A DNA stretch of 64,000 nt from Bdellovibrionales bacterium (GTDB lineage Bacteria; Bdellovibrionota; Bdellovibrionia; Bdellovibrionales; UBA1609). Below are positions 42,598 to 64,000 of this stretch, one piece after another. The translations under genes and the position numbers were made by a program. How positions within the stretch are numbered: position 1 is the stretch's first letter; every line of letters begins with the position of its first letter. The notes under the pieces were generated by a model that saw nothing but the letters and a program-made list of their open reading frames with translations, had not been told where the DNA came from and searched no databases. The DNA is taken from assembly GCA_027317865.1 (NCBI GenBank), contig DAHVQG010000006.1:110257-174256 (forward strand), given 5' to 3'.

Positions 42598-42674
42598 GGC
42601 GGTTATAGCTCAGTTGGTAGAGCCCCGGATTGTGATTCCGGTTGTCACGGGTTCGAGTCCCGTTAACCGCCCCA
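42598..42674 (+). tRNA. tRNA-His (GTG) with G-1 and encoded CCA
   Basis: Cloverleaf: acceptor GCGGTTA/TAACCGC, anticodon loop TTGTGAT, GTTCGAGTCC T-arm, C73 discriminator. Confidence 0.97.
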
Positions 42675-43149: not shown

Positions 43150-44016
43150 ATGGATACATCATCTAATGCACCTAAAACTGTAAACACGAACCGTCGCACA
43201 GCTCTCTACGCGCGAGTGAGTACCGACCAACAATCAAACGGCCTTGACGCCCAGATCAGAGCACTCAGGCAATTCTGCGAACAAAATAAAATCACAAATT
43301 TTGAGATTTTTGCTGACGAGAACCAATCCGGCACGAAAGCATCCAGGCCCGCCCTTGACCGAATGATGGCTGCCGTTGAACGGGGCGAAATTGAAAACGT
43401 TATTGTTTTTGCATTTTCACGATATGCACGCTCTGTCTCTCACATGCTTAAAGGCTTAGAGGTCATGCGCAAGTATAAAACCAATTTTGTCTCGTTAAGT
43501 GAAAAGCTCGATCTTAACACAAGTCTTGGAAATGTCGTATTCATAATCATAAGTGCAATCGCGCAGTTAGAGCGGGATCTGATAGCGGAGCGCGTGCGCA
43601 ACGGACTCGCAGCAGCGCGTGCTCGCGGTAAAAGAATCGGTCGCGAGCGAAAGCGTAACTCCAAACTCATAGAGGAGTTACTTAATGCAGGCCTAAGCTA
43701 TCGCGAAGTCGCAAAGATTGCCAAATGTAGTCACGGAAGTGTCCACAGCCAAAAAGTCGAAATGAAAAAACGGTTAGCCGAAGAGGAGCGACAACGACTC
43801 GCCGAAATTGAGCGAAAGAAAGAAGAAGAAAAGCAACTAGAAGCACAGACACGATTTTTAATTGATTCAAGGACTAAACAGTTCAATGAAAACCCCCTGC
43901 CACTACTGTCACCGGCACCGACAACGCCACCAAGTAATGAAGCGTCACCAGCGCAAAAATCGTTGTCAGGAGGCCAAAACACGTCAACGTCATATCCGTC
44001 CACACAACCGAATTAA
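43150..44016 (+). CDS. Serine recombinase, resolvase/invertase family
   Basis: YARVST, SG..ASRP.L, SRYARS and ERDLIAER..G motifs; HTH; low-complexity tail. Confidence 0.93.
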   Translation: MDTSSNAPKTVNTNRRTALYARVSTDQQSNGLDAQIRALRQFCEQNKITNFEIFADENQSGTKASRPALDRMMAAVERGEIENVIVFAFSRYARSVSHMLKGLEVMRKYKTNFVSLSEKLDLNTSLGNVVFIIISAIAQLERDLIAERVRNGLAAARARGKRIGRERKRNSKLIEELLNAGLSYREVAKIAKCSHGSVHSQKVEMKKRLAEEERQRLAEIERKKEEEKQLEAQTRFLIDSRTKQFNENPLPLLSPAPTTPPSNEASPAQKSLSGGQNTSTSYPSTQPN

Positions 44017-51158: not shown

Positions 51159-52865
51159 ATGGGAAGATTACGTACTAAACCATCGCAAGGTAAATTGAAA
51201 AGTGTCGAAAGAAATGTCGACTATTCACGGCGCGACTTTATAAAACAAGCCGCACTTGTTGCTGGTTTAAGTGCAGTGCCATTTAGCTTTTGGACATTTG
51301 GTGACCGCGCACGAGCGCAGACTACAAGCGTACAGTACAACCAAAATGTGATTGGACAGCTTCCCGACTTTTATATCTCTCCCAGTGTTGCTATTGGTGC
51401 AGGCAGCGGAACGCAGGCGGATCCGTGGGGGATAGATGCTCTCGGCTACAATGACAGTAGCGGCAACTACCACCCTGGGAAACGTTCTTTATACACGGGG
51501 AAGGTCGTCGGCCTCATGGACGGCACTTATTCGCTACACACGCTACTGGGGACTCCATGCCCCGGTGATTTCAGTGGCGGCAATTGGATCGGTGTGGCGC
51601 CGAATACGGCTGCCACTCCTACTATCGTTGTTTCGCAGACTCCGCAGGGCGCGATTATCGATGGTCAGCGTGATGCGATTTACGCTGCTGATCCGACGCT
51701 CGACTGGGGGTGCGGGTTACTTGGCCCACAAACCTTCGGTTACGGCCAATATGGCATCGGCCTTATCATTGACGGTCTCAAGTTTCAGGGTGCCAATTAC
51801 CGTTGCATTACGAACTACGGGGGCGCTTACCCCTCTGGGCGCGGTGGTAACGGGAACAACGGCTGTGATAATCTTACTGTGCGCAACTGCTGGTTTGCCG
51901 ATCAGTCATACATCACCTGCCAGATGCCAGGTAAAAATGCCGCGATGTTCTACAGCGAAGGTTCTTACCAAATTTACGTGCAAAATTGCCGTTTTGATCA
52001 GGGAAGTGCCCCGAGTGATACCAATCGCGAGGCACTTCTCCAGTTTTACTCTCCGACCATAGACACAATTGTTGAATACTCCACGTTCACGGCGCCGCCC
52101 GCCAGTTCCAATGGCATCTACTGGAAGTGCGGACCGTCACCGGGCCACCAGCAGGCGGTCGCGCGGTACAACTACGTTGACATGTCGCTCACCACTACGA
52201 CAAATAGTGTCGGCGCAATCATGTTCGACGGTACAACCGTGACGACAGATACGTGGCAGGTATATAACAACATCATTATTGCGACGATAGGCAATCCGGC
52301 TATCTGGTTCGACACTTCTGGAGGGCCCGGTGGTGACTCCGGAATCTGGGATATACACGACAATACCATCGTTGGTAACTGGAGTAGCAAGGGAATGATC
52401 TACTCCACGAATAATTGGGGTATTAAACCGACTGCTGTCAACTTCTACAATAATATCGTTGCGCCATCTTTGGGTGGAGGTCAGACGGGTGATTTCCAGG
52501 TACCTGCCATCAGCGAGATCAGTGAAGTCAACTACAATCTTTATCCGACTGTGGTTCATTTTGGCGTAGGTAACAGCTCCGCATTTGCATCCCTAGCATC
52601 CTGGCAATCCGCCACCTCAACAGCTGGTCATGCGGCGGATATGAACTCCGCGCAGGGCAATCCACTTTTCGTGGCTACGGGAACGGAGGCAGATTATTAT
52701 CGCCTAGCTTCGGGATCTCCCGCGCTGACCTTGAGTTCCGGAGGCAAAGAAATCGGGGCGTGGGGAAATGGCGCTACGCAAATCGGCAACAATTTTTCTT
52801 CAAGTGGTGTAAGTGGCGGTACAACTAAAACTCCGATGGCGCCGACATTATTGAAAGTTGTTTAA
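51159..52865 (+). CDS. Tat-exported parallel beta-helix (pectin-lyase-like) protein
   Basis: SRRDFIK twin-arginine signal; YISP..G.G...PW motif; VYNNII/IHDNTI/FYNNIV beta-helix turns. Confidence 0.8.
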   Translation: MGRLRTKPSQGKLKSVERNVDYSRRDFIKQAALVAGLSAVPFSFWTFGDRARAQTTSVQYNQNVIGQLPDFYISPSVAIGAGSGTQADPWGIDALGYNDSSGNYHPGKRSLYTGKVVGLMDGTYSLHTLLGTPCPGDFSGGNWIGVAPNTAATPTIVVSQTPQGAIIDGQRDAIYAADPTLDWGCGLLGPQTFGYGQYGIGLIIDGLKFQGANYRCITNYGGAYPSGRGGNGNNGCDNLTVRNCWFADQSYITCQMPGKNAAMFYSEGSYQIYVQNCRFDQGSAPSDTNREALLQFYSPTIDTIVEYSTFTAPPASSNGIYWKCGPSPGHQQAVARYNYVDMSLTTTTNSVGAIMFDGTTVTTDTWQVYNNIIIATIGNPAIWFDTSGGPGGDSGIWDIHDNTIVGNWSSKGMIYSTNNWGIKPTAVNFYNNIVAPSLGGGQTGDFQVPAISEISEVNYNLYPTVVHFGVGNSSAFASLASWQSATSTAGHAADMNSAQGNPLFVATGTEADYYRLASGSPALTLSSGGKEIGAWGNGATQIGNNFSSSGVSGGTTKTPMAPTLLKVV

Positions 52866-52981: not shown

Positions 52982-53105
52982 TTTTTCGACATGATAAAAA
53001 GTTCGACGGCTTTTCTGTGAAGTGAATCAAATCGAGATGCTCAATGGGAATTGAATCGATTTGATTTTGATTTTCATGAAGATAACTGGTCAAAAATTTG
53101 CACAG
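52979..53105 (+). repeat. Duplicated promoter region copy 2, containing sigma54 motif TGGTCA-AAAAT-TTGCA (53087-53102)
   Basis: Shares TAGTTTTTCGACAT..TAAAAAGTTCGACGGCTTTT, GAGATGCTCAATG and TTTTCATGAAG with copy 1. Confidence 0.8.
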
Positions 53106-53126
53106 CATATTAGGGGGGATATCATC

Positions 53127-54893
53127 ATGGGAATGAAAGGGGCGAAAGCTTCACGCCATAAAGTCCATAGTCTAGCAACACGTGTCGACTTGTCCCGGCG
53201 TGATTTTATCAAACAGTCTGCTCTATTGGTTGGCGTCAGTGCAATGCCACTGGGCATTTTGTCATTGCCGTCGCGAAGAGCTCACGCGCAAACCCTAACA
53301 ACTTTTGATTATTACATTTCACCGACCGGAACTGATTCGAATCCAGGAACACTCGCAAGTCCATGGGCCATCACATCTCTTCAGGTTTCGAACACGAACT
53401 GGTCAAAGCTGGCGGGTAAACGGATCGGACTGCTCCCCGGCACATACAACGTCGGCTCGATGATGGAGAATGACGCCTCAACCGGCGCGCTTCAAATTCC
53501 AGGAGGCTCATCAAGTTCATGGACGTACCTCGCAAGCGCGGATGCCAGCGGCAACTACTCGCCGCGCACGGCAACGCTTAATGCCTTCGCCAACGGTCTC
53601 TACGGGGGCTTTCACTCAACCGGGCCAGGTGTCTACGACGGCCCAATTCTCTCCCACGTGGGCCGGTGGCCGAAACCCTATCCGCTCGGCTATTTAACCT
53701 TAGATGGAATCGTTTTCACAGGCTTCAGCTACAAGGGAATTCGCATAGGTGGCGCATCTTCTGGCGATGGTCCAGTCATAACCGGTCCAGTTACTGTGCA
53801 AAACTGCGAGTTCACAGGGCAAGGATTCAACACCGGCGACGGCCAAGACAATGGTAATTCGATTTGGGTGGATCCGTTTCAGCCTCCGATTGGGCAGCAG
53901 GGATGCCTCGTTACGAACTGTTGGTTTCACGACAATGTGTGGGAGGGCGGTGCAACTAGCGCTGACCACCTCAACGCAATTATCGCGTTCGGCTTCACCA
54001 CTGAATGTTATGGCCTCGAATTCTGCTACAATACTGTCGTGAAAAGCGGATCCATCTACGGCAAAGAAGGCGGAATTAGTGGCGTTAACGTTCATCACAA
54101 CTACATCGATGCAACCGCATACGCTGTGTATTCGGGGTGCATCGCGGACTTTATGAGCGGTGGTGGCACGTTCAATGGGCTTACGCATCCATCTTCTTTT
54201 CATCACAATGTCTGCTTGAGCTCGGGTAGTGGCGCAGGGAGCAGTGGCGGTATGATGTTTCCTACACTCCGCCAGACCGCTTATGGATCGGGCTACGGTT
54301 GGCAGACGCCCGTAACGATCTACAACAATACGGTCGTCTGCGTCGGAGCGAATACAGGGGCGATGGTGTTCGATGCCGCTTGTGCCCAGGACAATTCGGG
54401 ACTCGGACAGCTTAGGGCATTCAACAATATTTACGCCAGTAATGCCGGTGGCAGTTGGAATAATTATGGTAATTTTTTGACCACAGTTAAGAGCCCGGCG
54501 GTTTGGGATTACAACTTATTTCCTTCGTCCGGAGTGACGTGGGCCATCGTGCCTGACGCCAATAATTTTAGTCTTTGCACTTCGCATTCGCTTTATACAA
54601 GCGCGGCGAGTTTTGCATCAGCGGTGGCCGTGGGCGGCGGTATTGCGGGCATAGAAGCGCACAGCGTTGCAGCTGCGCCGAAATTCACGAATACAGGATC
54701 GTACGCCGAACTCTATAAACTCGCGAGCGGTTCGGCTGGCGTAGGCCAAGGAAGCTCTGACGGCACCCCGAGCGGCACGCCTTGCGATTTGGGGGCGTGG
54801 GGCAATGGCGCCACGCAAATCGGCTGCAATTTTACGTCTGGCGCACAAACAATAAATACTCCGATGCCGCCAACGCTATTGAAGGTGGCATGA
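53127..54893 (+). CDS. Tat-exported parallel beta-helix protein (paralog of 51159)
   Basis: SRRDFIK; YYISPTG.DSNPGT..SPW; shared C-terminal GAWGNGATQIG. Confidence 0.8.
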   Translation: MGMKGAKASRHKVHSLATRVDLSRRDFIKQSALLVGVSAMPLGILSLPSRRAHAQTLTTFDYYISPTGTDSNPGTLASPWAITSLQVSNTNWSKLAGKRIGLLPGTYNVGSMMENDASTGALQIPGGSSSSWTYLASADASGNYSPRTATLNAFANGLYGGFHSTGPGVYDGPILSHVGRWPKPYPLGYLTLDGIVFTGFSYKGIRIGGASSGDGPVITGPVTVQNCEFTGQGFNTGDGQDNGNSIWVDPFQPPIGQQGCLVTNCWFHDNVWEGGATSADHLNAIIAFGFTTECYGLEFCYNTVVKSGSIYGKEGGISGVNVHHNYIDATAYAVYSGCIADFMSGGGTFNGLTHPSSFHHNVCLSSGSGAGSSGGMMFPTLRQTAYGSGYGWQTPVTIYNNTVVCVGANTGAMVFDAACAQDNSGLGQLRAFNNIYASNAGGSWNNYGNFLTTVKSPAVWDYNLFPSSGVTWAIVPDANNFSLCTSHSLYTSAASFASAVAVGGGIAGIEAHSVAAAPKFTNTGSYAELYKLASGSAGVGQGSSDGTPSGTPCDLGAWGNGATQIGCNFTSGAQTINTPMPPTLLKVA

Positions 54894-54912: not shown

Positions 54913-55368
54913 ATGAACCTAAAATTTAACTTTTACAGTCATCGCATGCGGGTGGCGCTTATCGGAATTCTCACAATTCTACTGGTGGGATTTTTCTTTA
55001 ACAATTGCTCGGGCGGATTTCAATCAGCCGGAAGTACAATTAGCCAAAGCTCGACAAGCAGTTCTGCGGGGTCAAATTCAGGATCGAGCGGCGCCACAAC
55101 CGCCAATCAAGGGATGGCCACATTGACTTGGCAAGCGCCAACTCAAAATACGGATGGTAGTTCACTAACCGATCTTGCCGGCTACCACATTTACTACGGC
55201 TCTTCTCAAAATGCTCTTAATCAAATGATCACAGTTTCGAATCCGGCTACGACCACGTACCAGATTGACAATCTCGGAACCGGAACTTGGTATTTCGCTG
55301 TCGCGGCTTACAGCACATCGGGCACAGAAAGCGCGCGCTCAAATGTTGGAAGTAAAACTTTCAAATAA
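54913..55368 (+). CDS. Fibronectin type III domain lipoprotein-like protein
   Basis: FFNNCS signal; Ser-rich linker; LTWQAP..LAGYHIYYG..L..GTWYFAV.AY..ES..SN. Confidence 0.85.
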   Translation: MNLKFNFYSHRMRVALIGILTILLVGFFFNNCSGGFQSAGSTISQSSTSSSAGSNSGSSGATTANQGMATLTWQAPTQNTDGSSLTDLAGYHIYYGSSQNALNQMITVSNPATTTYQIDNLGTGTWYFAVAAYSTSGTESARSNVGSKTFK

Positions 55369-55712
55369 TGCCAACTCAAGTTTTGACCATTTAAGATGTA
55401 TTTAGCGTCGCTTGCCGTAGGTGACGGCGCTACGAAATTCATTGAACCTTAGTCAAGGCGAAGAAATGTGCAAAAGGTCTCGGGGCAGCGTCGCAAATCA
55501 TTTGTTGGCGCAACTCAGTTTTGTAACGGCTGCTCACTGAAGCGTCGGTCAATATTTACTCAGGCCGCTGATCGTTGGACTCGGAGACAAGTTGCCGTCG
55601 ACACAACGCCCTATGATATTAAGAAGGTATCCGACCAAAGTTAGTTAAACCCGCTTGGTTGTTTGACCCGTACACCGCCTAAACTCGCGCCAACGTTCAA
55701 AGGTCCACCAAG

Positions 55713-55728
55713 TGGCTAAAAATAGCCA
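55713..55728. promoter_or_regulatory. Palindromic operator TGGCTA-AAAA-TAGCCA (putative enhancer/UAS)
   Basis: Perfect-arm palindrome, repeated three times at 61835-61933. Confidence 0.75.
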
Positions 55729-55878
55729 TTTTCATTTTTGCCTTAAGTTCTGAGAACGCCTTCACTTTTTTTAAAAGTGCATTCGGAAAAAACACGTTTT
55801 GAAACGGTTTGCGAAAGAGTTACATGGGCATTAGCGGAGTCAAGTGCGCTCAAATACAACGTCGCTAAACTGAAGGTG

Positions 55879-55891
55879 TAAAACGTTGATT
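55879..55891 (-). promoter_or_regulatory. IHF consensus site
   Basis: Minus strand AATCAA-CGTT-TTA matches WATCAANNNNTTR; lies between the palindrome and the promoter. Confidence 0.55.
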
Positions 55892-55908
55892 CTCAGGCGG
55901 ATTTGATG

Positions 55909-55924
55909 TGGCACTGATCTTGCT
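55909..55924 (+). promoter_or_regulatory. Sigma-54 -24/-12 promoter
   Basis: TGGCAC-TGATC-TTGCT. Confidence 0.8.
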
Positions 55925-55945
55925 TTGAGCAAATTTCAGTTAGAT

Positions 55946-57346
55946 ATGAAACACTCAATTTTGTTTATTGATGATAATGAATCTCTTCGGGAGTCGATGA
56001 GCGTATTTTTCGAGCGCGAAGGGTTTAACTCAAAATGTGCCGCCGACGGCGAAGGCGGCATCGCTTTAGTTCGACAGAACGTCAGTCACTTTTCAATTGC
56101 ACTTGTTGACTATCATTTGCCCGATATGAACGGCGCACAAGTCACCGCAAGAATTCGCGAACTTGATTCAGACATTATAATTTTAGGGTTTTCGGATGAC
56201 AAAACAGATCCCGTTCACAACGAAGCGCTTGCGGCCGGTGCGCTCATATTTGTAAATAAAGATGCAAGCGACGCCAAACTTCTTGGGATTTTGCACCGGC
56301 ACTGCCAGGAGTACGAGAGGCGAAATAAACCACTTACAATTACCACTAGAAGTGCAAATCAAAAATTGATTTCTGCATTAGGTATGGTCGGCTGCTCGAA
56401 CCATCTGGCTCAAATCTCGCGAGATGTTTTTAAATATGCGCTCACAACGTCAACCGTATTTATCAGGGGCGAAAATGGCACAGGAAAAGAGATGATTGCT
56501 CGTGCCGTCCACAATCTATCTGATCGGCGCAATATGCCGTTTATTCCTGTAAACTGCGCAACAATTTCTAAGGACTTAATTGCAAAAGAATTATTTGGTC
56601 ATGTGAAAGGTGCATTTACCGGGGCCGTCGAAAATAGTTCTGGCAAATTTCAGGCTGCTAACCACGGGACGATTTTTCTTGATGAGATCGGCGAGCTTTC
56701 ATCAGACGCGCAGGCAGCCCTTCTTCGTGTACTTCAAGATAAAACCCTCATGCCGGTTGGATCAAACAAAACCCAAACGGTAGATGTCCGAGTTGTAACC
56801 GCGACAAATGCTCCAATCGAAAAAATGATAGAAGCCAACGAATTTAGGATCGATTTATTTCAAAGGCTTAACGTGTTACCCATTCGTCTAAATCCACTTC
56901 GTGAGCGTCCCGAAGATATTCCATATTTAGTTGAACATTTTATGGGCCAAGAAAACAAAAAAGGGTCCGCAAAGAAAATGATATTGGAATCGGACGTTGA
57001 AAAACTAAAAGCTCTGCCATGGCTTGGTAATGTACGCGAACTTGGGCACGCTATCGAATATCTATTTACCGTCTGCGATGGTGATCGACTTGATATATCA
57101 CGGTTGAAAAACTGGAATGATAACCTAAGTAAACAACGGTCGTTATCGAGTCCCGGCGACATTAGAAATCTCGGAGCCACAATTAAAGAGCGTGAAGTCG
57201 AAGAGATCAAAAGCTCTCTTCGAAACCAGGGTTCAGTTGTCGGTGCCGCCAGGAGGCTTGGAATAAGTCGCGGCGCCTTACGAGCAAAAATTGAAAAGTA
57301 TGGGATTGAAATCGAGAAATTTACAAAGGAGAAACTAAGGCCATGA
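55946..57346 (+). CDS. Sigma-54-dependent response regulator (NtrC family bEBP)
   Basis: Receiver (FIDD, VDYHLPD); Walker A GENGTGKE; GAFTGA; FLDEIGE; W.GNVREL; Fis-like HTH. Confidence 0.95.
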   Translation: MKHSILFIDDNESLRESMSVFFEREGFNSKCAADGEGGIALVRQNVSHFSIALVDYHLPDMNGAQVTARIRELDSDIIILGFSDDKTDPVHNEALAAGALIFVNKDASDAKLLGILHRHCQEYERRNKPLTITTRSANQKLISALGMVGCSNHLAQISRDVFKYALTTSTVFIRGENGTGKEMIARAVHNLSDRRNMPFIPVNCATISKDLIAKELFGHVKGAFTGAVENSSGKFQAANHGTIFLDEIGELSSDAQAALLRVLQDKTLMPVGSNKTQTVDVRVVTATNAPIEKMIEANEFRIDLFQRLNVLPIRLNPLRERPEDIPYLVEHFMGQENKKGSAKKMILESDVEKLKALPWLGNVRELGHAIEYLFTVCDGDRLDISRLKNWNDNLSKQRSLSSPGDIRNLGATIKEREVEEIKSSLRNQGSVVGAARRLGISRGALRAKIEKYGIEIEKFTKEKLRP

Positions 57347-57759
57347 AAACACGTTATACCGTGCCGATACTGCTGGCATTACTAACGGGAACGCTTGAAG
57401 CAACCGCTGCCACGGCAGCTCCGGTTCCCGCACAAAGGCTCACTTACGAAGAAAAAATTGAGGTTGCAAACGCGATTAACCTTCTCATCAATGAAGACGT
57501 GCTTACAATCTATCCAAACCAATGCTTGAAGTTTTCTATTACGAGTCCTGAAACCACACAACGACTCAGCTATAAAGAACAACTTGAAGTTACGGATGCC
57601 TATAATCTTCTTGTTGGCGAGCATGTTCTAAAAGCTACCCCCGATCAATGTTTGAAATTTGATGGCGGCATCATCAGCGAGCTTAGAAAAATGGGACTGC
57701 TCGAATATGGTGACTCGAAAGTTTTAACAGTGTGTTTTAGTAGTCGGGGTACAAAATAA
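57343..57759 (+). CDS. Small secreted protein with two 34-aa repeats (candidate signal precursor)
   Basis: Signal peptide; repeats at aa 31-64 and 73-106, 20/34 identical; ATGA overlap with the upstream gene. Confidence 0.8.
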   Translation: MKTRYTVPILLALLTGTLEATAATAAPVPAQRLTYEEKIEVANAINLLINEDVLTIYPNQCLKFSITSPETTQRLSYKEQLEVTDAYNLLVGEHVLKATPDQCLKFDGGIISELRKMGLLEYGDSKVLTVCFSSRGTK

Positions 57760-57784
57760 CATTTCCGACGAAAGTTAGTGGGCA

Positions 57785-59317
57785 ATGACAAAATATAAAT
57801 TAATTGGGGTTGCGTTAGCACTCTTAATGGTCGGAGGAGGCTTTATACTTATGACAAATTTAGGTGGAAGTGATGGGAATTTGCGAGTGGCGTTTCCCTC
57901 CGATAAGCCGGTTACGGACTACGAACCGACTGAAATTCATTGGGACTATCAGTACATTCTTTTGGAAAATTTATTTTCTCCACTTGTTGAATTTGGCAAA
58001 CATGGAGCTCTTCATGGAGGGATTGCGGAACATGCTGACTGGGTTGGTGATGAACTCCGTCTGACCATTCGTAATGGACTAAAAACTGAAAATGGGACGC
58101 CGATAACGGCTGCCGATGTCGTGTTTTCCCTAAAGCGATTGTTGGTTTTGTCTGGTAACACGCACGGAAATTTTAAGGACCTTGTGTGTCCTGGTATTAA
58201 ACTCAAATCAGTTGAAGACAACTGCCCCGATCTTACAAGTGACGGTAATGTTGTTATTATAAAAACAAAAAAACGGGAACAATTTCTTCTTCCAATGCTT
58301 GCTGCAATTGATTTTGCGATTATTCCAAAATCAAGTGTCGATCCAAAAACACTAAAAATCATAAATTATAAAGAAACAAGTGGTCCATATTATGTCGCAA
58401 AAGACGATGGAAATGGACATATTGAATTAAAGCTCAATCCATTTAGTTATCATGCAAGTAAAAACATTCCACAGACCGTGGAACTTGTGCCCGAGCTTAC
58501 TGCAAAGGCAAGCCTTGAGGCTCTTCTTAACAATCAAGTTGATCTTGTCACCACAATCGATGCTGCACGCGCTGATGAAGTTTTGCCATTTGCAGAAAAG
58601 CATAGTCAATTTCGGCTCCACGAAACGCAGAACATTCGAGTTGCCGTGCTCGTTTTTACTGAAAGGGGGATTAAAGAATTGTCGTCTGAAGAGCGTCGAT
58701 ATATTGGGCATCAAGTTCGCGAGGCGTTTCGGACCCTTTCTAATAATACCCCTGGGTACCAGCCCACCGATTCTTTCTTTCCTGGGTTGAGCGATGGTGC
58801 GCTCACAGGTAAGCAGCAGACCGATATTCTCGCGCTCAACAAACTTCATGGCACTAAACCAAAAGGTGAAATCAAAATTGGCCTACTTCATGACAATAAT
58901 GTGAGCCTGTGGTCGAATGCCATTCGTAAAGCACTACCGGATGCCAAGTGTTCTACTATTTCGTACATACCGGCGTTTGGAAAACATTCATCGATCGATA
59001 CCATGCCCGATGCGTTTATCGGTGCAACCGATACGTCGTTTATGGAAGACATCAATCTCATTTCTTACTCACTTAACGCCGGAGTTTTTGGTCTTACTAA
59101 GCTTGAGCGTGCTGAATGGTTGAAGAAATACATGTCGATTGATGACAAAGAAAAGCGCCTAAAAATGCTTCGAAATCTTGAGTTCGATGCCCTGTCAGCT
59201 CCAGTTCTTGTTCCGCTTGTTGCTTCACCATACACTGCGTTAGTGCGCAAACCATGGAGATTTGAATTATCAACCTATTATGCAAATGATCCGATATGGC
59301 AAATCACACGAGATTAA
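57785..59317 (+). CDS. Family 5 (OppA/DppA-like) solute-binding protein, no adjacent permease or ATPase
   Basis: ENLFSPLV, GTPITAADVVFSLKR and TSGPY motifs; N-terminal hydrophobic anchor. Confidence 0.85.
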   Translation: MTKYKLIGVALALLMVGGGFILMTNLGGSDGNLRVAFPSDKPVTDYEPTEIHWDYQYILLENLFSPLVEFGKHGALHGGIAEHADWVGDELRLTIRNGLKTENGTPITAADVVFSLKRLLVLSGNTHGNFKDLVCPGIKLKSVEDNCPDLTSDGNVVIIKTKKREQFLLPMLAAIDFAIIPKSSVDPKTLKIINYKETSGPYYVAKDDGNGHIELKLNPFSYHASKNIPQTVELVPELTAKASLEALLNNQVDLVTTIDAARADEVLPFAEKHSQFRLHETQNIRVAVLVFTERGIKELSSEERRYIGHQVREAFRTLSNNTPGYQPTDSFFPGLSDGALTGKQQTDILALNKLHGTKPKGEIKIGLLHDNNVSLWSNAIRKALPDAKCSTISYIPAFGKHSSIDTMPDAFIGATDTSFMEDINLISYSLNAGVFGLTKLERAEWLKKYMSIDDKEKRLKMLRNLEFDALSAPVLVPLVASPYTALVRKPWRFELSTYYANDPIWQITRD

Positions 59318-60144
59318 CAAATTGGCTCGTTGAAAACCGGGCTACGATGAATCCGCATTTTACCGAGTACACTTGGCCGAAGCGGTATTTTCATGGGATT
59401 CATGACATTGAAGCTAGAATTACTTTGCGTGATATCTCAAATGGTAGTCGTAAAGGGCGAATGATAGACTCATGTGGACGAGGCATTGATGCCAACCAGG
59501 AACTTGCACTAGAGAAAGCATCATCCGAAGCCATTGAGCGGCTTATTTGTTTACGTTTTGGATTCGACTCTGAAGGGTTTGCGATTTCGGGTCGCAATGG
59601 AGCTGCCGAGCACGCTAAAGACGAAGCTCTTGAGCGCTATTATTTTAAAAGCCACGTGGATAATGGTCGACCATTTTCACAAATTGACTCGTCAAGTACG
59701 CGCCAATTAATTGAGCGGTTTAAATTGCAAAATGCAAATTTTGACATGATCTTTTACCGGATGGCTACACCTGAAGATGTAAGCGGTGTGGTTTGCACAA
59801 TTGCTGGTAGCAATCAGGAACCATTCTTCTTGGGTCTTGCGTTAAATTGTGATCTCGAAATTTCGGCAAGCCGGGCCATGAATGAATCGCTTGCAAACTA
59901 TGCACGCTTCTGTGATGAGCCAGAAAGCTACCGGGCCGAAGTTGAAAAAAATAAAGACGCGTGGATTTCAAAACCCAACTTCTTACGGTCGATACAATCA
60001 CTTTTTACCACGAATGAAACAATTAAACTATTGATAGAACCGCCAGAGCTTGCAAGTGAGTTCATTGATACTTCCACATTCCACCCGCTTCGAGGGTGCC
60101 CGATTGAGCCCGTTCGATTTTATGTCAAAGGAGTGTCTCTATGA
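59296..60144 (+). CDS. Miniature YcaO-like protein
   Basis: GRG...ALEKASSEAIER, SEGFA...AKDEALER and G.A.....ASRAMNE match the three YcaO nucleotide/Mg-binding motifs. Confidence 0.7.
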   Translation: MANHTRLTNWLVENRATMNPHFTEYTWPKRYFHGIHDIEARITLRDISNGSRKGRMIDSCGRGIDANQELALEKASSEAIERLICLRFGFDSEGFAISGRNGAAEHAKDEALERYYFKSHVDNGRPFSQIDSSSTRQLIERFKLQNANFDMIFYRMATPEDVSGVVCTIAGSNQEPFFLGLALNCDLEISASRAMNESLANYARFCDEPESYRAEVEKNKDAWISKPNFLRSIQSLFTTNETIKLLIEPPELASEFIDTSTFHPLRGCPIEPVRFYVKGVSL

Positions 60145-61697
60145 CAAGGTCACTTAACGAGAATATTCGACGCTTTGAAGTCAAACAAATTGTCGTATCA
60201 GCGCTAGCTCTTATAATTGTGGTTGGCACTTCAGTTATTATCAACAGCTATCAATTAAATTCTGTTGCACATGAAGCGGCAAAGTTTGTGACTCGACTTA
60301 TGCAGCTCGAAGATATTCGTGAAGTTCCCTTCGTACTCGGTGACACAAGACGTGATGGAATTTCAAAAATCATATTTGCTTCAAACATTCCGTCAAGGCG
60401 ATTTACGGTCCCACCTCCGACGTATATTAATAAACCAAACGCATTTTGGCACGATCTTGTAACATCAAAAATTACACTTCCTGCCGACGATCAACTTGAA
60501 ACAAGTTACAAAGATAAAATTACATTTGAATATAATCGGTTTCGGCTTGCCCCGTATGCAGTTTTAATTTGGCTTTTACTTGTGATTGTTTCTATTCCAC
60601 AGACTCAGTACATGAAGCGTCGGCTTGTCGAACAGTTTGAGCGAGAAATGAAAGGTGTTGAAGCCCAAGCTAAAGCTGACATTGCGCGCGAGGTGCGCCA
60701 CAATTTGCGCTCACCACTTGCCGCACTCATGCGTGTGCCGTCGCTTTTACCCGATTCGGTTGCAAAAGAACGTGAACTCTTAAAGAGCACAATTAATCAA
60801 ATTAAAGCCTTAATTTCGCAACTTGGATACGACGCAAAAGCCGAGTCATCACAAAATAACTCAAAAGAAATTTACGACACCCTTATACAATCGGTGCAAG
60901 AAACGGCCGCAGCTCTTCCGTCTGAAATACAATTCATTCACGAAGTTGAAGACGCCGTTGTGTCAGCCTACGTCACCCACATTCCGCACGAACTTCGAGC
61001 GTTAATCGGTAACATTGTAATCAACTCGGTTGAGGCAATAAATGGTCGTGGCACGATATTTTTTAAGGCACGTGATTTTGCAAGTCATATTGAAATCGTC
61101 GTTCAAGATTCAGGGCGAGGAATTCCTGCCGATGTGATCGAGCATATATTTGATGAAGGCTTTTCCCACGGCAAAGATAAGAGTACTGGTCACGGTCATG
61201 GGCTTTCCCATGCTAAACGGTGGATCGAAAAATGGGGCGGAACAATTGCCGCAAAAAGTGAGTCAGGGCAAATGACGACCATCACAATTGAGCTTCCAAT
61301 TGAGGAGCGGGCAAGTTGGTATGTGCCGAAAATTCGGCTTTATGACAATCAGCCCGTGATCGTTGTGGATGACCAAGAATCTGTCCGTAGACTTTGGGGA
61401 ATAAGGCTTGATGAAGTCGGCGTGACAAACGCAAGCGTTCTTTCAAGTGGCGCTGAGTTTAATGGAGTGGCTGCGCGGTTTGACGGGACTAATCAACACC
61501 CAGCGATCTTTCTCGATTATGATCTAGGTGATGATGTAAATGGCCTTGATCTTTTTTCACAGATGAAATTTCTCGGCGACAAGTATCTAGTCACGGGTCA
61601 CTTTGATGATCTTAATTTAAGGCGGCGGTGTGAGCGCGATAGCATACGCCTGCTGCCAAAAAGCCAGCTTGCCGATATACCAATTATCGTTGTTTAG
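60141..61697 (+). CDS. Membrane sensor histidine kinase with C-terminal receiver domain
   Basis: Two TMs; H-box RHNLRSPL; N-box NSVEA; DSGRGI; GHGLS; receiver VVDD..FLDYDL..PK. Confidence 0.93.
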   Translation: MTRSLNENIRRFEVKQIVVSALALIIVVGTSVIINSYQLNSVAHEAAKFVTRLMQLEDIREVPFVLGDTRRDGISKIIFASNIPSRRFTVPPPTYINKPNAFWHDLVTSKITLPADDQLETSYKDKITFEYNRFRLAPYAVLIWLLLVIVSIPQTQYMKRRLVEQFEREMKGVEAQAKADIAREVRHNLRSPLAALMRVPSLLPDSVAKERELLKSTINQIKALISQLGYDAKAESSQNNSKEIYDTLIQSVQETAAALPSEIQFIHEVEDAVVSAYVTHIPHELRALIGNIVINSVEAINGRGTIFFKARDFASHIEIVVQDSGRGIPADVIEHIFDEGFSHGKDKSTGHGHGLSHAKRWIEKWGGTIAAKSESGQMTTITIELPIEERASWYVPKIRLYDNQPVIVVDDQESVRRLWGIRLDEVGVTNASVLSSGAEFNGVAARFDGTNQHPAIFLDYDLGDDVNGLDLFSQMKFLGDKYLVTGHFDDLNLRRRCERDSIRLLPKSQLADIPIIVV

Positions 61698-61834
61698 ACA
61701 CAAAAAAGTATCTCGATTAAAATAGTTTCCTTAAGTTTCAATTTTTCGAATGACGCCGAAAGTGGCCGAGCACTGCTTCGCTGCGATTCATTGATTCAAA
61801 ATTAAAATTACGATTTTAGTGACAGATATTAAGG

Positions 61835-61933
61835 TGGCTAAAAATAGCCATTTCGTGGCTATTTTTAGCCAGTGAAGCTTAAGTTTGTGATTTCATTTGC
61901 GATTGAAAAAATTAGTATGGCTAAATTTAGCCA
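61835..61933. promoter_or_regulatory. Three TGGCTA-W4-TAGCCA palindromes
   Basis: 61835-61850, 61856-61871 and 61918-61933. Confidence 0.85.
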
Positions 61934-62021
61934 TTTTCAAAAATCAACTGTTTTTGTTTCTAATCGTTTGATCGTAAGTCAATTCATAAACTTACCTCAT
62001 TTATACGTCTAAAAATCACAT

Positions 62022-62037
62022 CGGCACAATCCTCGCA
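62022..62037 (+). promoter_or_regulatory. Sigma-54-like -24/-12 promoter
   Basis: CGGCAC-AATCC-TCGCA (GG-N10-GC). Confidence 0.6.
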
Positions 62038-62097
62038 ATTATGTATTTGGGGGCGGCAATAATGCCGCTTCCAAAACAACAAACGAAGGAGGAGCAA

Positions 62098-62331
62098 ATG
62101 CTCAATGCCGATCAAGCACCATACTTTCATACATGCCCACGCTGTGGCGCCGGAGGGCTCGAACGACTTTCGACCCACGCGTACTGCTTCGAGTGCAATT
62201 ACGCCGAAGCGCATGATACGGGCGAGTTTTTAGCGATCCCACCATGGGCGCTCGAAGTGCTTAAAACGCCAAAATCTAAACGGGCAAATCACGACCGAAA
62301 TGAAGAGGACCAACTTAAATGCGCAGTTTGA
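62098..62331 (+). CDS. Small zinc-ribbon protein
   Basis: AAGGAGG RBS; CPRC...CFEC. Confidence 0.75.
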   Translation: MLNADQAPYFHTCPRCGAGGLERLSTHAYCFECNYAEAHDTGEFLAIPPWALEVLKTPKSKRANHDRNEEDQLKCAV

Positions 62332-62375: not shown

Positions 62376-62864
62376 ATGAAAAAGACGAACAAAATTGACC
62401 GACAAGAAATTTTACTTAAAAGACTTCGCGCTGAACGCGAAAAACCAGACGCCGAGCTATGGGATGAATATCTAACTAACCTCGAAACACCGCTTAAGGA
62501 GTCGATGGCTTCGCCTAGCCGATTCGAACGCACTCCGCACAACGGTGGGGTGTTTGATAGATCACCCAGTTTGACATCACAAGGCACGACTTCGGCCATT
62601 AACCGTATCCTTTCTGACATGCCCGATCTTCAGCAAAGAATACTTCGGATGACTTTTTGGGACGGCATGACGGAGCCAGAAATTGCATCTGTATTGGGGA
62701 TTTCTCGACGAATAGTAAGTTATCAGAAACACGCGGCTATTCGTGATTTACGACAAAAATGTGGTTCGAAACTCCCTATTAGTGAAGGGGTGATGAGTTT
62801 TTCACCTGACCTTAATCCTAAATCTCAAATCAATAAACCAACAAACGAAGGTGAGGAAAAATGA
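62376..62864 (+). CDS. Sigma-70 region 4-like HTH protein
   Basis: LSDMPDLQQRIL..FWDGMT..EIA..LGIS...V....AIRDLR. Confidence 0.8.
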   Translation: MKKTNKIDRQEILLKRLRAEREKPDAELWDEYLTNLETPLKESMASPSRFERTPHNGGVFDRSPSLTSQGTTSAINRILSDMPDLQQRILRMTFWDGMTEPEIASVLGISRRIVSYQKHAAIRDLRQKCGSKLPISEGVMSFSPDLNPKSQINKPTNEGEEK

Positions 62865-63124
62865 CTGCATTTAATTTATGCGCCAAGGATAGCGACGAAT
62901 TTCGAAACCTTTTAGTCAACCTGGACTTTGCCCTTGGGCACATGTCCTACGGCCAAAAGCTCGCACTATTTCTTCACTATTGGCAACGAAAGAGTGTGCG
63001 TGAGGTGGCAAACGTTTTTGCTATCTCATGGGATAGGGCTGATCGCTTAATCGACGAGTCGCTTGCCGAACTTCGCCAACAACTTTTTATCGCTGACGAC
63101 ATTAAAGAAGCGGAAGGGTTTTAA
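62861..63124 (+). CDS. Small sigma region 4-like HTH protein
   Basis: AL..MS..QK.AL.L.YW...SVREVA....IS...L..LR. Confidence 0.7.
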   Translation: MTAFNLCAKDSDEFRNLLVNLDFALGHMSYGQKLALFLHYWQRKSVREVANVFAISWDRADRLIDESLAELRQQLFIADDIKEAEGF

Positions 63125-63754: not shown

Positions 63755-64000
63755 AATATTTTTGGTTAAGCCAAGTTAGGGTGTCCGCCAATTATAATTT
63801 GGCCCAAAAAAAAATAGCACTGAAAAACAAAAAAACGACGTGAAGCCATTTTTAAAATTTATGGCTGAGGAGTAGCTATGCGCAAAAATCTCAACTGGGA
63901 GTCGCTTCAAACCTCCCAACAGATATTGGAAAAAGGACGAGGTGCCCGGTTTAGGCGATTTCACAGGTACCGTCGTCGACGATTGACCGGACGGCGACGG

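Follow-up and report, generated by a model that had tools for sequence, protein, structure and literature searches.

What would a YcaO enzyme, of a kind known from antibiotic-like natural products and a few protein modifications, be doing inside an operon of signal transduction genes? The question is raised by positions 55713-62331 of a 64,000 nt stretch of DNA (the window, whose numbering is used throughout) from a Bdellovibrionales bacterium (GTDB UBA1609; GCA_027317865.1, contig DAHVQG010000006.1, 110,257-174,256, forward strand). Genes for an NtrC-type sigma54 activator, a small secreted protein, a family 5 solute-binding protein (SBP), a compact YcaO and a hybrid histidine kinase follow one another there as a five-gene cassette, which an original prediction had read as a YcaO-linked peptide autoinduction circuit. 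Our analysis suggests that the cassette is probably a peptide-autoinduction two-component switch of a mobile element, built from an unprecedented set of parts, and sequence comparison indicates that it is a member of a module found across the Bdellovibrionota.

The five genes, all on the plus strand, span 55946-61697 and are as tightly coupled as originally predicted, with 4 nt ATGA overlaps at 57343 and 60141 and a 22 nt overlap at 59296 in the open reading frame (ORF) list. The first (55946-57346) encodes a 466 aa response regulator in which Pfam and NCBIfam searches found a receiver (REC) domain (Response_reg, PF00072), an AAA+ domain (Sigma54_activat, PF00158, E 1.1e-62) with its lid, and a helix-turn-helix (HTH_8, PF02954); the GAFTGA loop, claimed to be intact, is so in the alignment (FGHVKGAFTGA). 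Its predicted start, a TTG at 55925, had to be corrected to the ATG at 55946 (MKHSILFIDD...), which matches the relatives, because the sigma54 promoter abuts that TTG. The 138 aa small secreted protein (57343-57759), a candidate substrate of the YcaO and ligand of the SBP, is followed by the 510 aa orphan SBP (57785-59317), a candidate co-receptor with an N-terminal hydrophobic anchor or signal segment, the 282 aa YcaO (59296-60144) and the 518 aa hybrid sensor histidine kinase (60141-61697). The kinase matches HATPase_c (E 1.2e-20) and, weakly, Response_reg, and is predicted to have hydrophobic segments near residues 16-36 and 134-154 with a periplasmic loop of about 100 aa between them, in keeping with the two-membrane-segment hybrid kinase proposed earlier. 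Alignment with nine relatives located an H-box (VRHNLRSPL) and a C-terminal receiver-like domain whose acidic residues and Lys are kept in all relatives sharing the window's gene order.

The 282 aa protein had been called a miniature YcaO, and from its modeled fold and conserved residues it looks like a true YcaO that is apparently able to use ATP. Its AlphaFold2 model has a predicted local distance difference test score (pLDDT) of 91.7 and a predicted TM score (pTM) of 0.88, and in a Foldseek search of the PDB with this model ranks 1 to 36 were all YcaO enzymes (best E 2.7e-9). Structures of Methanopyrus and Methanocaldococcus YcaO led the matches (6ci7, 6cib, 6peu and 6pe3; E 2.7e-9 to 2.5e-8, TMq 0.54-0.61), and E. 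coli YcaO, LynD, TruD and McbD appeared further down. The precomputed annotation tag of the protein is PF02624, and a profile built for the family retrieves MJ1094 (E 8.6e-8) and McbD (E 8.7e-4) at the sequence level; a PDB sequence search with the single YcaO sequence gave chance-level matches only (E about 0.6). Across 24 family sequences G61, G63, E78, E81, G94, E110, E113, R114, G180 and E197 are invariant. Of these, E78, E81, E110, E113, R114 and E197 make up a pair of ExxER helices and a Glu further on, the presumed ATP/Mg2+-binding acidic motifs of YcaO. The second ExxER and the third Glu motif align well with MJ1094 and McbD, the first weakly and with MJ1094 only (3.3 bits).

Members of the family are 262-365 aa long, and the window protein scores 14.9 bits against the NCBIfam model TOMM_cyclo_SagD, for which the cut-off is 219. 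Pfam and NCBIfam models detected no E1-like or RiPP recognition element (RRE) partner and no FMN (flavin mononucleotide) dehydrogenase in the five genes or their neighbors (RiPP, a peptide made by the ribosome and modified after translation). Among related loci, which we numbered with the prefix L, a nitroreductase neighbor was seen only in the unrelated context of L081. An adjacent candidate precursor with a Cys, or with a Ser in L093, is present as expected for an azoline-type enzyme. A search of the genome, which is 99.2% complete, found no TfuA (PF07812); archaeal thioamide-forming YcaOs that do not depend on TfuA exist, and by analogy thioamidation by the cassette YcaO might still proceed without this partner.

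These features bear on the idea that the cassette makes a small antimicrobial RiPP, a bacteriocin, that autoinduces through the two-component system. Lantibiotics induce their own synthesis in this way, a YcaO, a Cys-bearing precursor and a two-component system would also outline an autoinduced bacteriocin cluster, and the classical YcaO and nitroreductase context is present in the phylum (L081). Nevertheless, we regard this as a highly improbable account, since in the window cassette Pfam and NCBIfam revealed neither a dehydrogenase nor an ABC exporter, a leader protease or an immunity gene, since a dedicated orphan SBP and a sigma54 activator are atypical of bacteriocin clusters, and since the output operon codes for regulators, to which relatives add a type IV secretion system.

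The small secreted repeat protein of the prediction is borne out by its translation, which has a signal-peptide-like N-terminal segment and a duplicated module of about 35 residues with one Cys per copy, and ends in ...LTVCFSSRGTK, where Cys131 is invariant. It matched no Pfam or NCBIfam family, and an ESM Atlas search gave no usable feature match and only structure matches with TM below 0.5. In 16 aligned loci with the window's gene order (type A) the start Met and the C-terminal Cys are the only invariant residues of the small ORF, and the Cys recurs in all six further loci of this order, giving 22 of 22. The middle Cys is not conserved, being absent in L016, L023 and others, and therefore the terminal Cys is not simply one half of a disulfide. 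The small ORF of L028 is truncated.

A second gene order, described below, was sampled for its small ORFs in 10 loci and in a cassette on contig C22 of the same genome. The signal-like N terminus is found again, and a Cys lies within the last 11 residues in 8 of these 11. Several are only 47-56 aa long, with Gly/Ser-rich cores and ends such as ...GATCEK, ...GGSCK and ...GASCG, and from their composition these look like RiPP-type precursors. L093 has a Ser where two close relatives have the Cys (...PSS... vs ...PSC...), a single case that seems to fit Cys/Ser cyclodehydration better than thiol-specific chemistry. The tail also varies with the enzyme: where the YcaO ends in ...(P/V)H(P/C)xG the Cys of the small protein is penultimate (6 of 6), and where it lacks that end 3-28 residues follow the Cys (15 of 16), so that 21 of 22 loci agree, although these represent clades and not independent events.

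The SBP was predicted to lack a permease, and for its own contig this holds: of the genome's 11 matches to the permease family PF00528, none falls on the window contig (C39 in our analysis). The protein's match to SBP_bac_5 scores 57.5 bits (cut-off 32.4) over profile positions 4-210 of 368, and its sole NCBIfam match is to the nickel-type Opp5A_nikA, far under the cut-off (E 6.8e-7). Six SBP_bac_5 matches exist in the genome. Three of them are of the canonical kind (E about 1e-82 to 1e-92), with permease genes adjoining the two on contigs C37 and C38, and three are divergent, each belonging to a YcaO cassette. This distribution points to the cassette SBP as a candidate sensor rather than a transporter part, and a distant permease might still serve it. 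According to the excerpted text of one paper (PMC10128002), the cluster C SBP YejA serves to import phazolicin, a peptide that depends on a YcaO-domain enzyme for its modification, and MbnE is an oligopeptide-binding SBP of similar structure; the recognition of a modified peptide by the cluster C fold therefore has precedent.

Cis elements at both ends of the cassette connect it with its presumed output. The consensus sigma54 promoter predicted before the operon is there, as the only exact match in the window (plus strand, 55909-55923, TGGCACtgatcTTGC, TGGCAC-N5-TTGC at -24/-12); because 18 of 100 shuffles contain one or more exact matches, the match is weak evidence by itself and it is the position that counts. 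A 16 nt palindrome, TGGCTAAAAATAGCCA (TGGCTA-N4-TAGCCA), at 55713-55728 is a putative operator or upstream activator site; the activator start follows it by 234 nt and the -24 element by about 195 nt. Past the kinase, two further copies of TGGCTAAAAATAGCCA lie at 61835 and, on the minus strand, 61856 (61835-61871), 5 nt apart and in opposite orientation, and a third, TGGCTAAATTTAGCCA, with two mismatches, lies at 61918-61933. These three lie 105-188 nt before a second sigma54-like promoter of the GG-N10-GC form (plus strand, 62022-62037, CGGCACaatccTCGCa, CGGCAC-N5-TCGC), which precedes the next operon. The first gene of that operon (plus strand, 62098-62331, likely ATG at 62098 after AAGGAGG) encodes a small Zn-ribbon protein (CxxC...CxxC), and two small sigma-70 region 4-like proteins of 162 and 87 aa follow (plus strand, 62376-63124; Pfam Sigma70_r4/r4_2) as candidate second-tier regulators. 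None of 100 shuffles reached the number of operators in the window, and, with up to two mismatches allowed, the 2.65 Mb genome contains no site other than the four that flank the cassette. An operator shared by the cassette and the next operon, as had been proposed, is thus present in one plus three copies.

The palindromes could also be terminators or generic repeats and the sigma54 match a product of chance, which would leave an ordinary two-component operon with unrelated passengers. In a terminator scan the palindromes at 55710 and 61917 do score as weak hairpins followed by T-rich sequence, and the shuffles show how readily a single consensus match arises. The copies are identical, tripled, unique to the locus and spaced as would suit an enhancer-binding protein, which makes terminators unlikely as far as their sequence and placement tell; three successive hairpins ahead of a GG-N10-GC site are what one would expect of activator sites. 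Four relatives show the same layout with other palindromes, the GAFTGA loop of the activator is intact, and the gene set is conserved in two orders. Chance and terminators together are, in our estimate, an extremely improbable explanation.

The relatives extend this picture. In 10 of 17 loci a relaxed pattern picked up a sigma54-like -24/-12 site 27-67 nt ahead of the activator start, and a further one was seen in L015 by eye. The window, L014, L029, L030 and L069 each have a palindrome 207-234 nt before the activator start and copies after the kinase, that of the four relatives being of a different type (TGGCGG-N4-CCGCCA); L026 has three downstream copies and an upstream flank too short to judge. 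L012 and L013 have TAACGGAAATCCGTTA in common, and the recognition helices of their activators are alike and unlike the window's. Zn-ribbon homologs come after the kinase in L017 and L019, and in L017 TGGCACtttcaTCGC precedes the homologous ORF at the same place as the window's site at 62022. The host genome gave no match to Pfam Sigma54_DBD. We rejected absence of rpoN as the explanation, because the gene is cut by a contig end, its first 293 residues being encoded at C22:3-908.

The original prediction depended on whether the gene order recurs elsewhere, and it does. With the window YcaO as query, a match was found in 8 of 61 related genomes; with the family profile the module proved common, with 106 of 401 sampled genomes of the phylum positive, often with several copies and up to five each. 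The family comprises 351 clusters (50% identity) at E 1e-30 or better, 754 at 1e-10 and 2781 at 1e-3; of five cluster representatives that were looked up, four belong to unnamed clusters and one has a member labeled hypothetical protein. All 11 related loci in named genome records come from Bdellovibrionales, Pseudobdellovibrionaceae or Bdellovibrionota metagenome-assembled genomes (MAGs). In the first ten loci SBP and kinase genes enclose the YcaO gene wherever the contig permits, and the order SBP, YcaO, kinase is also found in 8 of 8 named-MAG loci. In 27 further phylum loci the SBP is directly upstream in 25 and the kinase directly downstream in 25, the exceptions being, on the SBP side, L045 and L046 and, on the kinase side, L052 (contig end) and L053. 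Twenty more distant members comprised five with the window's SBP-YcaO-kinase order, ten with the second order (YcaO, small ORF, SBP, kinase, sigma54 activator) and five in unrelated contexts with glycosyltransferases, DUF294, a sulfatase or a nitroreductase. Altogether the SBP and/or the kinase adjoins the YcaO in 41 of 46 tabulated loci, and the finding of the same four partners in two gene orders is good evidence for a functional linkage.

In two loci, L064 and L065, neither an SBP nor a small ORF intervenes among activator, YcaO and kinase, so that the tightest link of the YcaO appears to be with the kinase. This layout favors a reading in which the YcaO is an ATP-dependent modifier or regulatory partner of the kinase or activator and the small secreted protein is a periplasmic accessory of the SBP, such as an inhibitor or adaptor. 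The YcaO and kinase genes of the window are translationally coupled by an ATGA overlap, the closest solved folds are the archaeal structures 6ci7 and 6peu, archaeal YcaO enzymes thioamidate a large protein, McrA, and the type A small proteins resemble folded domains (alignment; Atlas model pTM 0.61). In the second gene order, however, the small ORF and the SBP separate the YcaO from the kinase, and an action on kinase or activator would leave the near-invariant C-terminal Cys and the 47-56 aa Gly/Ser-rich ORFs unexplained. A 130 aa secreted ORF ending in ...PLSCSRK lies right behind the kinase of L065 and a divergent SBP 1.2 kb away in L064, so the partners in these loci may merely have moved. 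We consider a kinase or activator target unlikely, though it is an explanation that deserves some weight.

Two more cassettes are present in the window's own genome. The C22 cassette (C22:293724-296464) has the second order, with a 351 aa YcaO (295409-296464; Pfam 33.7 bits), a small secreted ORF ending in ...GASGASCG and a 486 aa SBP (293724-295184); a TraC gene is located about 11 kb away and sigma54 activators are nearby, and the adjacent kinase, which matches only partially, may be broken. The C11 cassette (353128-357276) encodes a 120 aa secreted ORF that has no Cys and ends in ...GTKGTGGNW, a divergent 317 aa YcaO (E 1e-12 to the family profile), a 510 aa SBP and a 432 aa kinase, and is followed by a serine recombinase near the contig end (region 353128-358862).

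The window also supports the prediction that the cassette sits on an integrated mobile element, and we conclude from the gene content that it does. A tRNA-His identified by ARAGORN (plus strand, 42599-42674) probably served as integration site and marks the element's left edge, and a serine recombinase gene with a Resolvase N-terminal domain (plus strand, 43150-44016; PF00239, E 3.5e-40), a candidate integrase, lies downstream of it, the combination of tRNA and recombinase expected of an integrative conjugative element. G+C content dips at 44-48 kb and at 56-62 kb. The window is the end of its contig, which stops at base 64000, 2.3 kb past the kinase; the assembly totals 2.65 Mb. In the relatives, TraC/VirB4-type ATPases occur within the fetched flank in 16 of 41 signaling-type loci; in L027 TraC is accompanied by a TrbC/VirB2 pilin, and a DUF3487 protein and CagX/VirB9 are encoded 1-3 kb past the kinase in both L026 and L027. 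Other copies lie among cargo or defense genes (L015, L016, L022) or in chromosomal-looking surroundings (L064, L065). TraC of the window's own genome is on C22 (C22:280046-282538), where it belongs to another element, 30 kb into a contig of 314 kb.

Several further observations concern these elements. On a short contig of the same genome (C12:2516-5810), a truncated TraC-like ORF of 314 aa, the C-terminal half only, accompanies a toxin-antitoxin-like pair and two transfer-like membrane proteins; this fragment may be an unseen continuation of the window's element or part of a decayed one. Upstream of the cassette, 51159-52865 and 53061-54893 encode two paralogous large secreted proteins of 568 and 610 aa, without a Pfam family, that have a twin-arginine-like N terminus (...SRRDFIKQ...) and a common C-terminal end (...GAWGNGATQIG...TPM(A/P)PTLLKV) and may be cargo of the element; a 151 aa fn3 protein (54913-55368) follows them. 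Defense-type genes (a reverse transcriptase, RVT_1; a cytosine DNA methylase; an Mrr-type nuclease) flank two cassette copies in one genome (L012/L021:13711-14835 and L013/L022:13058-15763). In L017 (2946-5380) an IS66-family transposase separates activator and small ORF; the activator there is missing its HTH end, and this copy is probably disabled. Just past the kinase of L020 (2466-4349) are a small Cys/His-bearing secreted ORF and two ORFs that we take to resemble a bufferin-type (DUF692/DUF2063) set. A resistance-nodulation-division (RND) efflux set of outer-membrane factor, membrane-fusion protein and AcrB-type pump adjoins the cassette in six relatives, L022, L028, L029, L030, L031 (upstream of the activator) and L092, and could carry a periplasmic product across the outer membrane there; the window has no such set.

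The RND sets and the nickel-type NCBIfam match of the SBP, weak as it is, would suit a reading in which SBP and kinase sense a foreign cue, such as prey or cell-wall peptides or a metal, and the YcaO-modified Cys peptide is a periplasmic cofactor, for example a metal-binding azoline. Bufferins, described in the excerpt available of one report as Sec-exported, Cys-modified, copper-chelating peptides (PMC12452194), provide a parallel. Against this, the tail has one conserved Cys only, without the His/Cys cluster typical of metal sites, and the recurring neighbors are conjugation genes rather than metal-resistance genes. Autoregulation and a co-encoded ligand and receptor also suit a self-made signal better than a foreign one, and we hold foreign-cue sensing to be improbable.

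We therefore return to autoinduction by a peptide, for which the following mechanism, in our judgment about evenly poised between right and wrong, is suggested by the sequences: the YcaO would modify the Cys tail before Sec export, the SBP and kinase would sense the tail, and sigma54-dependent transcription would feed back on the cassette and drive the next operon. In the cytoplasm, the YcaO would spend ATP on a backbone modification at the small protein's C-terminal Cys, most likely yielding a thiazoline. After export the membrane-tethered SBP would bind the modified tail, whole or trimmed, in the periplasm and act as co-receptor of the hybrid kinase, which would phosphorylate the NtrC-type activator, as the domain types and the strict adjacency of the genes suggest. 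The activator would then bind the TGGCTA-N4-TAGCCA palindromes and open both sigma54 promoters, its own giving positive feedback and the second giving expression of the next operon with its Zn-ribbon and sigma-r4-like proteins, which in relatives leads into type IV secretion and conjugation genes. The parts, the cis elements and the element setting of the original prediction have all stood, the gene order is conserved elsewhere, and its signaling steps keep the conditional form given here. Its caveat, that a Sec-exported precursor and a cytoplasmic YcaO need not meet, is softened by the bufferin precursors, which in the excerpted account have Sec signal peptides and are nevertheless enzyme-modified RiPPs (PMC12452194).

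A number of observations weigh against this mechanism, among them the layout of L064 and L065 and the hairpin character of the palindromes given above. The window YcaO scores 25.0 bits against PF02624, just below the cut-off of 25.7 (relatives score 31-57 bits, and the C22 copy is over the cut-off), and it lacks the ...PHPxG end of the longer relatives. The small ORFs of L088, which has a Thr-rich end, of L075, of L076 and of the C11 cassette have no terminal Cys, that of L085 has its Cys 17 residues from the end, and L093 has the Ser instead. The type A small proteins, at 88-171 aa with helical modules, are not short peptides. In the Pfam and NCBIfam scan the cassette showed no recognition partner (E1-like or RRE), dehydrogenase, protease or exporter. 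The window cassette also contains no outer-membrane route, and no histidine phosphotransfer (Hpt) protein is in sight, though the kinase is a hybrid. The host's rpoN is represented by its N-terminal part only, and no transfer genes are visible on the window contig up to its end.

A wider reading, which we put forward tentatively, is that of a first Gram-negative peptide-pheromone system, in which a YcaO-modified, Sec-exported, Cys-tailed peptide or mini-protein, read outside the cytoplasm by the orphan SBP coupled to kinase and sigma54 activator, would time the conjugation of elements in predatory Bdellovibrionota. On this pheromone reading, which we hold to be less likely than not, the signal would be shared between cells, beyond an autocrine loop, and several incompatible "dialects" would often coexist in one genome. 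The prediction knew of no described system with this make-up, and in the full-text literature (with subscription journals and supplements outside reach) we found no paper that places a YcaO in a two-component or SBP cassette and no such system described for Bdellovibrio-like bacteria.

How does the cassette compare with known systems? In the logic proposed for it, the cassette resembles agr: a ribosomally made precursor is altered by its own enzyme at a Cys toward the C-terminal part, a membrane kinase and a response regulator take up the signal, and the circuit activates itself. Unlike the AgrD/AgrB/AgrC/AgrA system of Firmicutes, it has no AgrB or AgrD homologs and would employ a YcaO as modifier in place of a membrane peptidase; it further differs in its Sec signal peptide, its added family 5 SBP, its sigma54 output and its diderm host. 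With Rap-Phr (ICEBs1, pLS20) and PrgZ/PrgX (pCF10) it would have in common an element-encoded, Sec-exported precursor, a C-terminal signal and an output to transfer genes, and PrgZ of pCF10 is likewise an OppA-like family 5 binding protein encoded by the element. In those systems the peptide is unmodified, imported through Opp and read by a cytoplasmic receptor, whereas the cassette has no permease on its contig, a kinase adjacent to its SBP and an added YcaO. LuxP-LuxQ and TorT-TorS offer a parallel to the SBP gene beside a membrane hybrid kinase gene, an orphan periplasmic binding protein being the ligand-binding subunit in both; they involve other SBP families and small molecules made elsewhere, with no co-encoded peptide or modifying enzyme.

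Among YcaO enzymes, McbD, LynD and TruD are azoline-forming cyclodehydratases, bottromycin biosynthesis uses stand-alone YcaOs, and the archaeal enzymes form thioamides. The cassette protein has the same fold and acidic ATP/Mg motifs as these (McbD, LynD, TruD; archaeal 6ci7 and 6peu), and a candidate substrate with a Cys, rarely Ser or Thr, is encoded beside it. It differs from known YcaO systems in its size and in having no E1-like or RRE partner, no dehydrogenase and, genome-wide, no TfuA, as well as in a signaling rather than a natural-product context and a precursor with a Sec signal peptide. Bufferins, as presented in the excerpt, are similar in that a Sec signal peptide replaces the leader, Cys modification takes place in the cytoplasm before export and the setting is the Gram-negative periplasm; they differ in relying on an MNIO/DUF692 enzyme with a DUF2063 partner and in buffering copper, and the excerpted description contains no dedicated set of SBP, kinase and activator (PMC12452194).

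By these comparisons the cassette appears to share no homologous signal-processing parts with agr, the Firmicute conjugation pheromones or LuxPQ, and to add a YcaO and sigma54. An analogous, unrelated system in diderms would raise the question of how the elements of predatory bacteria time their transfer, and a YcaO inside a cassette of receptor, kinase and activator would give YcaO chemistry a signaling role. Peptide-controlled conjugation is a textbook case from Firmicutes; if the proposed mechanism is true, the cassette would be a diderm counterpart of the pheromone-controlled conjugation of enterococci and Bacillus, with a new role for YcaO enzymes.

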